Part shown: in pieces, positions 54,389 through 59,851 of the stretch
Numbering within the stretch: the stretch's first letter is position 1
Layout of the letters: each line of letters opens with the position of its first letter
IMG/VR virus record: IMGVR_UViG_3300005259_000074
Location: 198,471-262,470 of that record
DNA: 64,000 bases
Reading direction: 5' to 3' (one strand)
From: a virus
Taxonomy: Duplodnaviria; Caudoviricetes
The notes under the pieces: generated by a model
The model's input: the letters and a program-made list of their open reading frames with translations, nothing else
Database searches by the model: none
What the model was told of the DNA's origin: nothing
Made by a program: the position numbers and the translations under genes

Positions 54389-54682
54389 TTAGATCTGACT
54401 TATAGCGTAGATTATCCGCTGCTCTTCGGTGACACACGCTTGGAAAATAGCAGACTTATGGTGTACGACCATGCTGTGTTTGCAGTTGAAGAGACCGTCG
54501 TCAGGACGCTCGTAATTGGTACAAGACTCCCACGCGTGTCCACCGGCCGTACAAGTCCCTTTGTACAGTCCTTCAGTGTCTCCGTAGGCAACACACATGT
54601 CCCGTTTTGAGTTCATATTTGGTAGACCCATCTGGTAACTATCCAGATCTACGGAGATCAAAACTCCGCGTGCTAACTTCAC
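54389..54682 (-). CDS. Small Cys-rich family member (likely start ATG 54616, MNSKRDMC)
   Basis: Cys spacing and C-terminal helix shared with the family. Confidence 0.65.
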   Translation of the reverse strand: MKLARGVLISVDLDSYQMGLPNMNSKRDMCVAYGDTEGLYKGTCTAGGHAWESCTNYERPDDGLFNCKHSMVVHHKSAIFQACVTEEQRIIYAISQI

Positions 54683-54704
54683 ACTCTGGGTCCAAATTTA
54701 TATG

Positions 54705-54778
54705 TAGCCCCTATCGGTTACGATCCGATTTCTCTTGGTTCAGAGCCAAGTGTTTTAGCCGATTGAAACTAAGAGGCA
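54705..54778 (-). tRNA. tRNA-Gln(CTG), atypical T-loop ATCGTAA
   Basis: GCCTCT/AGGGGC acceptor, CTTGG-CTCTGAA-CCAAG anticodon arm, ATCGG/CCGAT T-stem. Confidence 0.75.
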
Positions 54779-54788
54779 ATAAGAAATT

Positions 54789-54941
54789 CTATTCTTTCTC
54801 GTGGACTATGCGATCTTCGATGTTCTCCTCTTTTCGACAGTACTTGCAGATGTCTTTCCACGCTACCGTGTCATCTTCAGCAGGTGAAGAGACGTACATC
54901 TCCCTCCCACATTTCTCGCAGACTACAGTCACCTCAGCCAT
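54789..54941 (-). CDS. 50-aa CxxC...CxxC Zn-finger protein (not in ORF track)
   Basis: MAEVTVVCEKCGREMY...DICKYCRKEENIEDRIVHEKE. Confidence 0.6.
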   Translation of the reverse strand: MAEVTVVCEKCGREMYVSSPAEDDTVAWKDICKYCRKEENIEDRIVHEKE

Positions 54942-54943
54942 CG

Positions 54944-55192
54944 TCAGATTCCTTCTATCTTTTTCAACAAGAGTGTCTCGTTGATCGCCTCTCTACACTC
55001 GCAATTTGTCTTGTCGTTCAACACATACTGATATATGCATCCTTCGGTGCGAAATCGATCCCCCTTTTCATTGGAGAAGAACTTACATTCACTCATGTTC
55101 CATCTATCGGCGCGGCACAACGATCTTCTGACGGGCCAATTTTTGTTGCCCGCATAATCATTAAAATCATAGACCTCGCAGCAATTTCTCAC
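54944..55192 (-). CDS. Small Cys-rich family member
   Basis: C..C..CKFF..CIY..CECREAI..KKIEGI. Confidence 0.75.
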   Translation of the reverse strand: MRNCCEVYDFNDYAGNKNWPVRRSLCRADRWNMSECKFFSNEKGDRFRTEGCIYQYVLNDKTNCECREAINETLLLKKIEGI

Positions 55193-55208
55193 GAAATGAT
55201 TCCTCCGA

Positions 55209-55433
55209 CTAGAGCAACTCGATCCTGTAGTCTAACAGAGCAGCTCTTTTCGCTTCTTCGCACTTGCATTCAGTCACGTCTACATCTATCCAATAAGCGT
55301 GAACGCAGCACACAATTTCTTTTGAGTCTTCGGATTTCTCGAAGAACTCGCAATTGCCAATCATTTCTTGATTGTAAGCAAGACACTCTGCTATCTTATC
55401 TCCATCTTGCATGTAGCATTGGTTAGATTTCAT
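55209..55433 (-). CDS. Small Cys-rich family member
   Basis: C..C..CEFF..CVH..CKCEEA..RIELL. Confidence 0.75.
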   Translation of the reverse strand: MKSNQCYMQDGDKIAECLAYNQEMIGNCEFFEKSEDSKEIVCCVHAYWIDVDVTECKCEEAKRAALLDYRIELL

Positions 55434-55436
55434 ATA

Positions 55437-55510
55437 TGGTCCTCCCTGCGGCTTCGACCCCGCGCCCTGGAGCTTCGGAGGCTCCTGCTCTTCACTGAGC
55501 TAAGGGAGGA
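55437..55510 (-). tRNA. tRNA-Arg(CCG)
   Basis: TCCTCCC acceptor, GGAGC-CTCCGAA-GCTCC, encoded CCA. Confidence 0.85.
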
Positions 55511-55577
55511 TATAGATTAGTTTACCCTGCGAAAAAGTTTACGAGTTGGTAAACTCACCCATACGGTAAACTTTCAC

Positions 55578-57516: not shown

Positions 57517-57782
57517 ATCTCTTCCATCTTCTCATCGAGTCGACAATCTTTTATCGCGGCTGGGTTCTTACACGGGTACGTGTGTTGGGATGAGATGGCA
57601 TCAGTTGGCTTGTAGTTCTCTCTGAAACAGCACTTTCCCCACTCGTCTTCGCTGAAGAAATAGCACTTCTTGTACAGCGAAGTGTTGGCTACTACGAACA
57701 TGACACCGTGGTCAACGCAGAAGTCCGCGTGCGAAGACATGCACATCGGAACATTTCCTATCATCTTGCACATGTTCGTCAT
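57513..57782 (-). CDS. Small Cys-rich family member
   Basis: ATGA overlap start at 57782; CYFF..CCF..CKNPAAI..EKMEEI. Confidence 0.75.
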   Translation of the reverse strand: MTNMCKMIGNVPMCMSSHADFCVDHGVMFVVANTSLYKKCYFFSEDEWGKCCFRENYKPTDAISSQHTYPCKNPAAIKDCRLDEKMEEI

Positions 57783-58465
57783 CGTCGGCATCGCCTGTGT
57801 TTCCACGTCGCTTCTAATATCTTAGCTGGGTCAGCACCGTAGAACCCGGAGCACGACCATGCGTTGAACTCTACGACTTTCATCTCTCCATCAGAAGTAC
57901 ACACGTCTAACACGCAGACATCATCCGGAGTCCATATGTTAGCCACGTGCTTTGCAAACTCTTTAGACAGCTCGTCTACTTCCGACTCGACGTCGAGGTA
58001 GCAGCTCCAGGCGACCAGTTCTTCGTCTTTAACCCAGAACCTGCGTTCTCTGAGAATTTCCCTAGGTGCTGATAAGAACATCATGTCGTCAGGCTGTAGC
58101 GAGGATCTTATCTGAGTCAGCATCCTCTCGTCCAGCACCTGCCCGCTCCAGAGTTTGGAACCAGAGTCGCTCCGGCAGAACTTTCCGACGTCGCTAGTGT
58201 CTAGCTGGCACACCTGCTTGAAGTAGCTGCCCTTGAAGTTGAGGCACAAGTCTCCAAGAGCTGGTAAGAACTCCGACACCTTTATGTCAGAGAACGCGAA
58301 GCGGTCTACGCCGTTCTTCTTCAACACTGCTGTTTCCTGTATACTGCAGAAGAAAAAGGAACTGTCTATAGTAGAAACATCATCGAAGAGGTTGTGGTAG
58401 CATACAGCTGACTCCGGAAGACTCCGAGTCCCCAACAAGCACGAGCTGACCGCTATCTTCTTCAC
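57779..58465 (-). CDS. ATP-grasp domain protein (DUF4343/R2K-like)
   Basis: KQV, RERRFWV, VLDVC..MKVVEFNAWSCSGFY. Confidence 0.8.
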   Translation of the reverse strand: MKKIAVSSCLLGTRSLPESAVCYHNLFDDVSTIDSSFFFCSIQETAVLKKNGVDRFAFSDIKVSEFLPALGDLCLNFKGSYFKQVCQLDTSDVGKFCRSDSGSKLWSGQVLDERMLTQIRSSLQPDDMMFLSAPREILRERRFWVKDEELVAWSCYLDVESEVDELSKEFAKHVANIWTPDDVCVLDVCTSDGEMKVVEFNAWSCSGFYGADPAKILEATWKHRRCRR

Positions 58466-58500
58466 TATTCCTCCGATGCGTCTATAATATCATATGACAT

Positions 58501-58731
58501 TCACAGTTCTTTTAGGACTTCTTCGACCCATCTTTCTGCTATGGCTTCGTCACAAGTGCATGTCCCATCGCTTCCCAACTGCGTCATATAAAACTCGCAC
58601 ATCCTAGGTTCAATGTCTGATGGAGAGAAGAACCCACATATCCAGTCGAAAGGCTCTACGCACACATAATTGTACGTTGGCGAGTTGTGGTCATCGAAGA
58701 AAGGACCTTTTATTTGGCAAGCGTTGATCAC
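58501..58731 (-). CDS. Small Cys-rich family member
   Basis: C..YVC..CGFF..CEFY..CTCDEAI..VLKEL. Confidence 0.75.
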   Translation of the reverse strand: MINACQIKGPFFDDHNSPTYNYVCVEPFDWICGFFSPSDIEPRMCEFYMTQLGSDGTCTCDEAIAERWVEEVLKEL

Positions 58732-58979
58732 AGTATCTCCAGTCTGACATCGACCATCTTATCTTTGTTCGCCTCTTCGCAAACACACCGCCTTCCAACG
58801 GCGCGAAAATGTATGCAGACTTTTACGAAAGATGAAACTCTTCCTGGATCGAAGAATTCGCATGTTGGCATGTCGCTGAAAGAAGACCCGCAGAGGAACA
58901 GGTGAGCACTATGATTGAACACATGATGAACATGCTGAGAGTCATATGCGAGTTCACACATGTTCTTCTTTGAGTTCAT
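58728..58979 (-). CDS. Small Cys-rich family member
   Basis: MNSKKNMC..FLC..CEFF..CIHF..CVCEEA..RLEIL. Confidence 0.75.
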   Translation of the reverse strand: MNSKKNMCELAYDSQHVHHVFNHSAHLFLCGSSFSDMPTCEFFDPGRVSSFVKVCIHFRAVGRRCVCEEANKDKMVDVRLEIL

Positions 58980-59242
58980 ATCTCTTCCATCTTCCTCTCC
59001 GAGATAGCGTCGGGACATGTGCAGATGTCGTCACATATACCGGTCCTAATGTACTCGAAGTATCGGCAGACATTCGGATAATCCTTTCTCGAAGAGAAGA
59101 ACTTGCACATGTTGCTGTCTTGTGGGTAATTGGTGCAGAAGTACAGACCACCTGGATGCCGCCAGTTGAACGGTAGTGCAAACTCTGAACAGCAGTTCAT
59201 CCCTTTCTTGTACCAATTCGGTTTGACTGATCTTATCGCCAC
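58976..59242 (-). CDS. Small Cys-rich family member
   Basis: CC..YFC..CKFF..CRYF..CTCPDAI..RKMEEI. Confidence 0.75.
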   Translation of the reverse strand: MAIRSVKPNWYKKGMNCCSEFALPFNWRHPGGLYFCTNYPQDSNMCKFFSSRKDYPNVCRYFEYIRTGICDDICTCPDAISERKMEEI

Positions 59243-59243
59243 G

Positions 59244-59321
59244 TCATTCCTCTATCTTCTCGTCAGCGGTTTGGTCTTTACCAACAGAATGTCCGATAGA
59301 TGTCTTAGAAGTGAACTTCAT
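59244..59321 (-). CDS. 25-aa mini-ORF ending DEKIEE
   Basis: ATGA overlap with upstream stop; MKFTSKTSIGHSVGKDQTADEKIEE. Confidence 0.4.
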   Translation of the reverse strand: MKFTSKTSIGHSVGKDQTADEKIEE

Positions 59322-59533
59322 ATCTCTTCTATCTTCGCCAACAAGTAGTTGTCTCGGGCCAGAGCTTTCGCCTGCGGATGAGCGCAGACACACAGTGGAT
59401 GAGTGTCTGGGTACGTCTTCCACTTGCATCCATGACCTCGCGTGCGCCTGTCGACACCCATGTACTTACAGCACTCGGGATCGTACATAGCGCTCAAAAT
59501 ATGGTGACACACAGGGATGTCTTGTCCATCCAT
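59318..59533 (-). CDS. Small Cys-rich family member (5' end possibly disrupted; frame open to 59593)
   Basis: C..CCKY..CKW..CVCAHPQA..AKIEEI. Confidence 0.65.
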   Translation of the reverse strand: MDGQDIPVCHHILSAMYDPECCKYMGVDRRTRGHGCKWKTYPDTHPLCVCAHPQAKALARDNYLLAKIEEI

Positions 59534-59602
59534 GAACGTCGCTTTGAACTTGTCTTCTGTGATAAGAGGCTCCCTTTCGACGTTAAATGTACTTCATATC
59601 AT

Positions 59603-59851
59603 CTACATTTCTTCCATTTTTAGCTCTGCAATTGCGTCTTTATGTGTGCAATAGACCATATCCGCGAAATCAATGAATTTGCACACTAATGAGTCAATCT
59701 TACTATGAATGACATCTTTCTCGCACCAGGTGCACGAATTTTTCATAGGATCATATGTGCAGTAGAAGTGTTCATCATTTCCCATACCAAAAGCTCCGGG
59801 GACTCGTGAACAGCAGTTCTTAGAGATTATAACTACTTTAGGTGCTATCAT
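59603..59851 (-). CDS. Small Cys-rich family member
   Basis: CC..FYC..CTWC..CKF..YCTHKDAI..LKMEEM. Confidence 0.75.
   Translation of the reverse strand: MIAPKVVIISKNCCSRVPGAFGMGNDEHFYCTYDPMKNSCTWCEKDVIHSKIDSLVCKFIDFADMVYCTHKDAIAELKMEEM

Follow-up and report, generated by a model that had tools for sequence, protein, structure and literature searches.

About 107 copies of one small cysteine-rich scaffold with variable loops in the genome of an uncultured T4-like phage

Ten small cysteine-rich ORFs of an uncultured 262-kb T4-like phage (genome 262,470 bp; IMG/VR record IMGVR_UViG_3300005259_000074) are genuine genes of a lineage-specific protein family, which is present in about 107 copies in the same genome. 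They lie at positions 54,389 to 59,851 of the window, by which we mean the whole analysed stretch of 64,000 nucleotides (positions 198,471 to 262,470 of the record), and all ten were found at the coordinates listed below, on the minus strand. A preliminary description made from the sequence of the window had proposed one expanded paralogous family, in which a scaffold of cysteines and aromatic residues carries highly variable loops, and had suggested a profile search. We built an iterated HMM from the ten local ORFs, which align to one common pattern, and applied it genome-wide. The profile matched all ten, nine with E values of 9e-8 to 4e-15 and one weakly (1e-4). In the whole genome it retrieved 107 ORFs at E<1e-3, as against one match among reversed ORFs and none among shuffled ORFs or in five shuffles of the matches. 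Together with the loop lengths given below, this difference of 107 versus 0-1 upholds the proposal of a single family; the proposed number of 'about 10' copies is right for the local array and far too low for the genome. Nearly all profile matches reach the last residue before the stop codon, and one candidate pseudogene (a match with an internal TAA) was noticed among the roughly 107 copies. The family genes are spread over 26 separate arrays. Cysteine accounts for 7.7% of the residues of the family, whose genes contain 33% of all cysteine codons in the genome. The copies occupy 25.2 kb, or 9.6% of the genome, a scale which the preliminary description had missed. The features of the local array are as follows.

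54389..54631, minus strand: family member, 80 aa from the ATG at 54631 (HMM E 9e-8)
54704-54778: tRNA-Gln (ARAGORN)
54789..54941, minus strand: non-family ORF of 50 aa with CxxC...CxxC, zinc-ribbon-like, between two family genes
54944..55192, minus strand: family member, 82 aa (HMM E 9e-14), the copy modelled with AF2
55209..55433, minus strand: family member, 74 aa, first gene past the tRNA block (HMM E 4e-13)
55578..56551, minus strand: tRNA block inside the array, Gln, Gln, Arg, Pro, Cys, His, His, Pro (ARAGORN)
57217..57516, minus strand: family member, 99 aa, with a long C2-C3 loop (HMM E 8e-15)
57513..57791, minus strand: family member, 92 aa, ATGA overlap with the next copy (HMM E 8e-12)
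57779..58465, minus strand: non-family R2K-clade ATP-grasp, 228 aa, inside the array (PF14243 R2K_3, E 2.1e-15; phrog_7313)
58501..58731, minus strand: family member, 76 aa (HMM E 1e-9)
58728..58979, minus strand: family member, 83 aa, start MNSKKNMC, ATGA overlap (HMM E 4e-15)
58976..59200, minus strand: family member, 74 aa, ATGA overlap (HMM E 4e-10)
59318..59533, minus strand: divergent or degenerate family member, 71 aa (HMM E 1e-4)
59603..59851, minus strand: family member, 82 aa from the ATG at 59851 (HMM E 4e-10; alignment)
60023-59996 and 59936-59909, minus strand: two tandem sigma-70-like promoters upstream of the five-gene run 59851-58501

The 54389 ORF, which closes the run after tRNA-Gln and whose reading frame is open up to 54682, carries MNSKRDMC and ends in an atypical AISQI; this start and MNSKKNMC of the 58728 ORF are the two near-identical starts that had been pointed out earlier, and both were found. 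In the first gene downstream of the tandem promoters (59603-59851) the start at 59851 takes in the N-C-C motif. The divergent member at 59318-59533 lacks the N-x-C start and is family-like only in its C-terminal hairpin and helix. The orthologue of 57217-57516, P0138, is 38% identical and shares the long C2-C3 loop, while that of 55209-55433, P0096, is 60% identical and is present on two related metagenomic contigs, L060 and L061. Both contigs lack the gene 54944-55192, and the 55209-55433 orthologue there directly adjoins that of the non-family ORF 54789-54941.

The consensus of the family reads N-x-C ... [YF]-x-C ... C-x-[FY]-[FY] ... C-x-[HYF] ... C-x-[CNS]-x-E-A ... K-[LMI]-E-[ED]-[IL]-stop, and the motif proposed earlier for the ten ORFs agrees with it. 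Five conserved cysteine columns are filled in 107, 107, 107, 104 and 95 of the 107 members, three thus being invariant, and a sixth in 41 of 107. Conserved aromatic residues stand at C-x-[FY]-[FY], C-x-[HYF] and [YF]-x-C, and the C-terminal helix terminates in K[LM]E[ED][IL]. The loops between the cysteines range over 5-21, 4-55, 7-26 and 6-24 residues, and the conserved cysteines are single, with a median spacing of 13, 10, 12 and 11 residues. The N-terminus is polar, M-(K)-x-N-x-C, and the mean net charge is -1.8, most members being acidic and some strongly basic (up to +12). AF2 predicted two beta-hairpins and a helix for the 54944-55192 copy (pLDDT 85, pTM 0.73); for 59318-59533 pLDDT was 68 overall, below 50 in residues 1-28 and 72-95 in residues 31-71. 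The common fold that had been suggested is supported as a prediction; for 59318-59533 it is modelled with confidence in the C-terminal half only.

The preliminary description had not recognised the family, and it matched nothing in Pfam, PHROGs, PDB, AFDB or BFVD. Scanned against Pfam, the ten members matched no family at E<0.05, zinc-ribbon and HTH included, there was no match in PHROGs, and a PDB profile search returned 0 matches at E<=1. The best Foldseek E values were 3.3 (PDB), 0.67 (AFDB) and 0.19 (BFVD), and the best VIA-align Z was 2.5 over 48,161 chains; that no structural match was obtained is no proof of a new fold. An unnamed ESM Atlas cluster of 75 aa resembled the modelled copy at TM 0.54.

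The four to five near-invariant cysteines, the lack of preference for even counts (57 members even and 49 odd, of 106) and the absence of signal peptides among family members make a metal site appear more likely than disulfides. A disulfide-rich secreted mini-protein of the knottin type was rejected on the 49/106 odd counts, the polar N-terminus and a hydrophobic 15-residue stretch (possible signal or membrane segment) in only 3 of 106 members. We take the putative cysteine cluster to be, most likely, a metal site with a structural role, for Zn or possibly Fe-S. Among the small aromatic-core proteins that bind iron-sulfur or zinc, HiPIP and rubredoxin have 55-85 residues, four Cys ligands and conserved aromatics beside the ligands. 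The family is like them in its size of 55-85 residues, its four conserved cysteines and its adjacent aromatics, metal ligation being putative here, but it differs in cysteine spacing, has no CxxC or CPxC and shows no sequence or structure match to them. Single cysteines 8-13 residues apart, unlike the CxxC knuckles typical of zinc fingers, speak against a metal site.

The array is led by the two tandem promoters at 59909..60023, upstream of the 59851-58501 run, which are sigma-70-like (CCTTTACA, 16 nt, TATATT or TATAGT); tandem early promoters had been mentioned earlier. Other arrays in the genome are preceded by the same extended consensus. TTyCCTTTACAT-N14-TATATT occurs 17 times as against 3.9 expected, directly upstream of several arrays, and 89 of 106 family genes have such a site on their own strand no more than 5 kb upstream. 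The genome also contains 11 T4-late-type TATAAATA sites, none of which precedes a family gene. Within the arrays, neighbouring genes are linked through ATGA overlaps of 4 bases at 47 junctions, and 93 of 106 genes stop with TGA. In many cases the codons for the acidic tail (..TG GAG GAn nTA TGA) also supply the Shine-Dalgarno sequence and start of the copy that follows. A Shine-Dalgarno core was found in the tail of 54% of coupled and 23% of uncoupled genes (p=0.015). The preliminary description had overlooked that at most junctions the conserved tail provides both the ribosome-binding site and the overlapping start for the gene that follows. The tail is kept on 64% of the family genes without a coupled downstream gene, and is therefore a protein-level feature. 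In addition, [LMI][ED][ED][ILVM]-stop ends 26 of 348 non-family proteins as against 0.4 expected, and its presence on 26 unrelated proteins, which a pure binder library leaves unexplained, hints at a shared reader for addressing or modification.

Relatives outside this genome were confined to tandem arrays on metagenomic phage contigs, which are rare, and some relatives lack the gene 54944-55192 or the entire block 57513-59851. The sister contig L065 carries 36 members, which are collinear with the stretch 58.7-69.4 kb of the genome. Identity in its 32 positional orthologues ranges over 35-68% (median 51%). For the same pair of phages, identity is 99.4% in gp23, 100% in the tail tube and 92.7% in the helicase, and dN is 0.004-0.05. 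Paralogues within the genome are at most 45% identical (median 26%). Since no paralogues exceed 45% and the orthologues, at 35-68%, have kept their order, the expansion is old, with each copy individually maintained and the proteins fast-evolving. The orthologue pairs gave pN 0.30 and pS 0.73, a saturation of synonymous sites which limits any inference of positive selection on the loops; such fast evolution with ω clearly below 1 would also be given by relaxed constraint. Loops are 49% identical between orthologues and 23% between paralogues, which with the kept gene order argues that they are constrained copy by copy and, differing among paralogues while being kept among orthologues, that each copy presents its own surface. 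Loops of this kind fit a set of distinct specificities.

We infer from the above a metal site, early timing and a binder or counter-defence function, and propose, at what we would call an even chance, that the family is a repertoire of early-expressed, metal-stabilised scaffolded binders for host takeover or counter-defence. The product would be a mini-protein of about 75 residues, soluble and cytoplasmic, in which four to six clustered cysteines would tie together two beta-hairpins and a C-terminal amphipathic helix and would be shielded by the conserved aromatic residues, while four inter-Cys loops varying by paralogue would give each copy its own surface. Its genes, chained by ATGA overlaps, are arranged in long operons that follow sigma-70-like (early-type) promoters, and each binder would be aimed at a different protein of the host or of a rival element. 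The set of copies is old, individually maintained and fast-evolving, with single genes gained and lost. The hyperplastic regions of T4 encode small early proteins for host takeover and anti-defence, for example Alc, AsiA, Arn and Stp, which are mostly unrelated singletons. The family genes are like these early ORFs in being short, tightly packed, translationally coupled, fast-evolving, variable in content and preceded by sigma-70 promoters, but here one scaffold is reused about 107 times. A wider version, which we regard as possible and somewhat doubtful, is an innate-like repertoire of ~100 versions of a metal-stapled scaffold, separately conserved and differing in their loops, each of which would neutralise another host defence or host factor; together with ~26-40 unrelated proteins they would share the acidic-helix tag and one reader; that single reader would serve delivery, modification or assembly. 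If true, this would be a new phage counter-defence principle of one scaffold, one address tag and many specificities, at a scale of scaffold repertoire not yet reported for any phage.

The tail on unrelated proteins (26/348 versus 0.4 expected) and on 64% of uncoupled family genes, where it acts at the protein level, would also suit packaged internal (ejection) proteins, with the acidic helix as a prohead address tag on about 130 proteins. Injected with the DNA, they would form a ready anti-restriction arsenal like T4 IPI* against GmrS/GmrD. Proteins of the IPI* type protect DNA with glycosylated hydroxymethyl-cytosine. The T-even internal proteins IPI*, IPII, IPIII and Alt carry a capsid targeting sequence, and mature IPI*, a compact protein of 76 residues with beta sheets and helices, blocks one restriction enzyme (Rao and Black 2010, PMC3012670). 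The family resembles mature IPI* in size and architecture; IPI* has beta sheets and terminal helices, and in its otherwise diverse body only the targeting tag is conserved (PMC3012670). The family also resembles the T-even internal proteins as a polymorphic set of small, largely dissimilar proteins with a short shared terminal tag, packaging being hypothetical here; unlike them, it carries the tag at the C-terminus, is Cys-scaffolded and is homologous throughout. We consider this reading unlikely, as the arrays follow early-type promoters and never a TATAAATA site. The T-even capsid targeting sequence is MKTYQEFIAE-like and is removed at an L/I-x-E site. Ten other proteins of the phage start with MSKFQELYE, which we take to resemble closely the T4 N-terminal targeting sequence; six of them adjoin head genes, three lie at window 52595-54387, and none is a family member or has an acidic tail. 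A T-even-type N-terminal targeting sequence was rejected for the family itself, whose members start M-(K)-x-N-x-C.

The remaining readings appear to us still less probable. A generic bulk role, as a metal, sulfur or redox buffer (metallothionein-like) or as structural filler, with dosage set by copy number and drifting loops, would agree with the cysteine content (7.7% of residues, 33% of the genome's Cys codons), with conservation of the scaffold alone across paralogues and with an ω below 1 yet high relative to core genes. We hold it to be improbable: dosage amplification usually leaves near-identical copies, and here there are no recent duplicates (paralogue maximum 45%), gene order is kept in the sister phage, loops are 49% identical in orthologues versus 23% in paralogues, and only one candidate pseudogene is present among about 107 copies. 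Equally hard to credit is a role as nucleic-acid-binding regulators, either specific transcription or translation factors or DNA-coating proteins, as was proposed for the zinc-ribbon proteins of Bacillus phage G, whose lineage-specific expansion to about 35 copies was called 'unprecedented' (Iyer, Anantharaman, Krishnan, Burroughs, Aravind 2021, Viruses 13:63, PMC7824862). In both cases a small Cys-rich domain has expanded greatly within one big phage genome, and some of our members are basic, up to +12. The majority however are acidic (mean -1.8), have no CxxC knuckles, match no Pfam zinc-ribbon or HTH, and no nucleic-acid-binding fold came up in the structure searches. Unlike phage G, the present T4-like phage has 107 copies, about threefold more, on 9.6% of its genome, in ATGA-chained genes, with a different predicted fold and no zinc-ribbon profile match. 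A zinc ribbon, in which two CxxC or CxxH knuckles on beta-hairpins coordinate one Zn, was rejected for the family, in view of its single cysteines without conserved CxxC, no Pfam match at E<0.05 and 0 PDB profile matches at E<=1. We also give little credence to RiPP-like combinatorial substrates of a phage modifying enzyme, for which the ends would be recognition elements, the cysteines cross-linking sites and the R2K ATP-grasp a candidate enzyme. Its gene lies inside the window array (PF14243, E 2e-15), and the family tails ..E[ED][IL] resemble the acidic ..EE C-termini on which the ATP-grasp enzymes RimK and tubulin-tyrosine ligase act. In prochlorosins one enzyme serves many hypervariable Cys-containing substrates, a logic which the family would match. 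But the predicted compact fold (pLDDT 85) is unlike precursors of the SCIFF/ranthipeptide or prochlorosin type, with their unstructured leader and short core, the relative L062 lacks the ATP-grasp block yet keeps the neighbouring family gene, and just one ATP-grasp gene is present among the 26 arrays, most of which have no adjacent maturase.

The preliminary description had also drawn attention to the tRNA genes for cysteine and histidine within the cluster. tRNA-Cys(GCA) and two tRNA-His(GTG) are indeed among the nine tRNAs of the window, but the link to the family is weak, since these three are not special among the 29 tRNA genes of the phage, which serve many amino acids. The tRNA genes form two clusters, one of which is the block in the window. 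The non-family ORF at 54789-54941 gave weak Pfam zinc-ribbon matches below the cut-off and is 60-65% identical in L060 and L061.

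Expansion of small Cys-rich domains is already known in large phages, and the ~35-copy zinc-ribbon expansion of Bacillus phage G has been called "unprecedented" (PMC7824862). The Cys-rich mini-proteins analyzed here make up a new family that is about three times larger than that of phage G, lacks zinc-ribbon identity and has no match to a known fold, and with about 107 copies it occupies a tenth of the genome. All ten ORFs listed by the preliminary description are indeed present, on the minus strand of the window; when aligned they share three invariant cysteines, two more that are nearly so, and a common C-terminus, and they match an iterated profile HMM with E values from 1e-4 to 4e-15. 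When this HMM was searched to convergence against the 1,925 ORFs that reach 40 residues or more in the genome (an IMG/VR virus record of 262,470 bp and 48.7% GC, with the window at bases 198,471-262,470), it matched 107 ORFs at E<1e-3 and 94 at E<1e-6, while reversed ORFs gave one match, shuffled ORFs none, and five shuffles of the matches themselves none. Thus the figure of "about 10" copies holds as a local count but not genome-wide. The family genes cover 25.2 kb (9.6% of the genome) in 26 runs, the longest comprising 16 genes, and contain 33% of the Cys codons of the genome.

The phage carrying them is a deep-branching, uncultured, T4-like phage. The window encodes a T4-type DNA polymerase (phrog_262, E 7e-176) along with both topoisomerase II subunits, an SbcC-like nuclease, a helicase and the large terminase, and the polymerase shares 31% identity with that of the best cultured phage, cyanophage S-WAM2, and at most 38% with that of any IMG/VR contig.

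The profile consensus reads M-(K)-x-N-x-C ... [YF]-x-C ... C-x-[FY]-[FY] ... C-x-[HYF] ... C-x-[CNS]-x-E-A ... [DE]-A-x-L-x-x-K-[LMI]-E-[ED]-[IL]-stop. Its five Cys columns are occupied in 95, 104, 107, 107 and 107 of the 107 members and a sixth in 41, and the spacers between them vary over 5-21, 4-55, 7-26 and 6-24 residues. Members have a median length of 76 aa, a Cys content of 7.7% and a mean net charge of -1.8. Since 57 members have an even Cys count and 49 an odd one, and a hydrophobic 15-residue window occurs in only 3 of 106, obligate disulfide knots and secretion are unlikely; the simplest reading would be a cytoplasmic metal site (Zn or Fe-S) with an aromatic shield. The phage genome yielded no glutaredoxin or IscA-type family, and a search for Erv1/ALR was uninformative, as it gave no signal in any control genome.

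AlphaFold2, supplied with an alignment of 105 paralogues, modelled the member at window 54944-55192 with pLDDT 85 and pTM 0.73, as strands 5-10, 21-26, 55-58 and 61-64 followed by a helix at 67-81. Foldseek returned no known match to this model in the PDB (best E 3.3), AFDB clusters (best E 0.67) or BFVD (best E 0.19); VIA-align against 48,161 PDB chains reached a best Z of 2.5, a sequence profile search of the PDB gave 0 matches, and a feature search of the ESM Atlas scored 0.80 at best, below the usable level. One unnamed 75-aa cluster of the ESM Atlas reached TM 0.54 against the model. A homodimer prediction with Zn scored 0.00, the partner fold being uncertain, and speaks neither for nor against a dimer. 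For the weakest member of the window, 59318-59533, only the C-terminal hairpin and helix were modelled well, and judging from the model this copy is most reasonably taken to be degenerate. That the family had not been recognised from sequence agrees with these results and with searches of PHROGs and Pfam, in which the ten members found nothing below E 0.05.

Relatives do exist in metagenomes. A profile search of 1.84 billion representatives yielded 155 proteins at E<=1e-3 (best 1.8e-9), and the top 150 comprised 46 from this genome and 104 foreign proteins, of which all those looked up proved to be ENA or JGI metagenome sequences in unnamed singleton clusters. These foreign relatives likewise form tandem arrays of ~75-aa genes with 4-base overlaps, on contigs that also encode myovirus gp23, tail tube and sheath. 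Among 50,697 phage records, a collection which may leave out this genome and its very close neighbours, neither the region (megablast) nor one member (tblastn) found a match. Two scans of metagenomes for loci syntenic with the window region turned up either nothing or no more than a 47% relative. No family member occurred in the five largest relatives that the DNA polymerase identified in IMG/VR (34-38% identity); these are distant and fragmentary, and their lack of the family therefore shows only lineage restriction. Taken as a whole, the family represents a small Cys-rich domain that has undergone an expansion specific to the lineage of this large phage. Some foreign relatives are built differently: a 232-aa protein (P0029; L064:1529-2227) has the domain between two repeats of an unnamed domain of ~75 aa, and P0135 and P0098 include a 106-aa protein made of two tandem short copies and a copy that follows an N-terminal hydrophobic segment. 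Pfam gave no match for these three variants.

Within the genome the paralogues share a median identity of 26% and a maximum of 45%, and there are no recent duplicates. They are only weakly local, the nearest paralogue lying within 5 kb for 24 members against 15±4 expected. A JGI metagenome contig (L065, 3300033121) carries 36 members collinear with genome 58.7-69.4 kb, and we set the 32 positional orthologues found on it and on a second contig of the sister phage (L067) against core genes shared by the two phages.

Divergence of family orthologues and core genes between the two sister phages
Protein; amino acid identity; dN; 4-fold differences
Family orthologues (n=32); 35.5-67.6%, median 51%; 0.38; 0.64
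gp23 (capsid); 99.4%; 0.004; 0.27
Tail tube; 100%; 0; 0.33
Helicase; 92.7%; 0.05; 0.46

This comparison shows that the expansion is older than the split of the two phages, that every copy has been retained one by one, and that the proteins change far faster than core genes yet under the synonymous rate (pooled pN 0.30, pS 0.73, with synonymous sites saturated in this pair). At the protein level they change at five to fifty times the rate of core genes, a pattern expected of arms-race molecules. Core columns were 79% identical between orthologues and 53% between paralogues, and the loops 49% between orthologues against 23% between random paralogues, so that the loops are constrained copy by copy. 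Gene content of the array turns over between relatives: contigs L060 and L061 lack exactly the gene 54944-55192, and contig L062 lacks the block 57513-59851.

Expression signals were examined around these arrays. The window array is led by two tandem promoters, CCTTTACA followed after 16 nt by TATATT or TATAGT. The genome has 17 copies of the extended promoter consensus, where shuffles give 3.9, and several arrays have one directly upstream. Of 106 members, 89 have a same-strand CYTTTACA site no more than 5 kb upstream. On the other hand, none of the genes downstream of TATAAATA sites, nine of eleven of which fall within 150 nt upstream of a gene start and six at 29-32 nt, is a family member. 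It may be noted that window 59900-60200 is a divergent promoter region with three copies of TTyCCTTTACAT-N14-TATATT: the minus strand has two, and the single plus-strand copy leads to a K/R/A-rich gene at 60244-60753.

The acidic C-terminal tail serves twice. At the gene junctions we counted 47 ATGA overlaps, the stop codon is TGA in 93 of 106 genes, and the last 14 bases have the consensus T-G-G-A-G-G-A-n-n-T-A-T-G-A; this consensus together with the overlaps means that the tail codons hold the Shine-Dalgarno site and start of the next gene. Tandem duplication of one such unit would always give an expressible copy, the tail serving as helix and as next ribosome-binding site and start. The Shine-Dalgarno core was found in 54% of the coupled genes, those with an overlapping downstream start, and in 23% of the uncoupled ones (p=0.015), and the tail is kept by 85% and 64% of them, respectively. 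We rejected the notion that the tail is a mere by-product of the next Shine-Dalgarno site, as the uncoupled genes that keep it do so mostly with GAA codons and without the core, and 105 of 106 genes have T at the second position of both hydrophobic codons. Moreover, 26 of 348 non-family proteins end in [LMI][ED][ED][ILVM]-stop against 0.4 expected, some of them 371-402 aa long, and seven have no overlapping downstream start. Examples encoded in the window are:
29802-31010, minus strand, non-family protein with the tail
31265-32380, minus strand, non-family protein with the tail
The tail is thus a protein feature besides its nucleotide role.

As to function, we consider that there is roughly an even chance that the family is a repertoire of binders, early and cytoplasmic, which share a metal-stapled scaffold and serve in host takeover or counter-defence. 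A bulk metal or redox role appears improbable, because the family has no young duplicates, loops conserved copy by copy and almost no pseudogenes, and we likewise give little credence to nucleic-acid-binding regulators, since most members are acidic. Packaged internal proteins addressed by the tail are a further reading. Ten proteins of this phage start with MSKFQELYE or a near variant, which we take to resemble closely the N-terminal capsid targeting sequence of T4 internal proteins; three are encoded in tandem on the plus strand at window 52595-54387, and the others include genome 52738-55591 and 74595-74966. They are, by analogy, candidate packaged or ejected proteins, and as none of them has the acidic tail, the phage seems to use the canonical N-terminal route, which leaves packaging by the tail a slim prospect. 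The T-even internal proteins, polymorphic and tag-bearing, are nevertheless the nearest functional analogy (PMC3012670), although the family lacks their N-terminal tag. The three MSKFQELYE genes in the window abut the family array and converge on it.

The remaining alternative, that members are substrates of a modifying enzyme, draws its only support from an ATP-grasp gene inside the array. Non-family features there include:
54789-54941, minus strand, 50-aa zinc-ribbon-like ORF with CxxC...CxxC, between two family genes, 60-65% conserved in contigs L060 and L061
55986-56068, minus strand, tRNA-Cys(GCA) of 83 nt, unusually long for a class I tRNA, possibly through an insertion or extended arm
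57779-58465, minus strand, R2K-clade ATP-grasp (PF14243, E 2e-15; phrog_7313), mid-array
R2K-clade enzymes are predicted to ligate amino acids onto proteins, and this one may possibly be a reader of the acidic ..EE[IL] tails. The gene is missing, however, from one relative in which the adjacent family gene persists, and we regard modification as unlikely. Should the members be specific binders, the family would constitute a natural library of tiny, stable, metal-stapled scaffolds, rich in inhibitors of bacterial proteins that act in defence or housekeeping.

The tRNA-Cys and two tRNA-His genes of the window had been linked to the family, but this did not stand, as the 29 tRNA genes of the phage, which form two clusters, serve many amino acids; given its share of the Cys codons the family may plausibly benefit from tRNA-Cys, but the association is not specific. 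Lastly, synonymous divergence between the sister phages was very uneven: differences at 4-fold sites were 0.27-0.33 for gp23, tail tube and p334, rose to 0.46-0.52 for helicase and p240, and reached 0.58-0.64 for p541, p322 and the arrays. This pattern points to mosaic recombination or to a strong constraint on the codons of structural genes.
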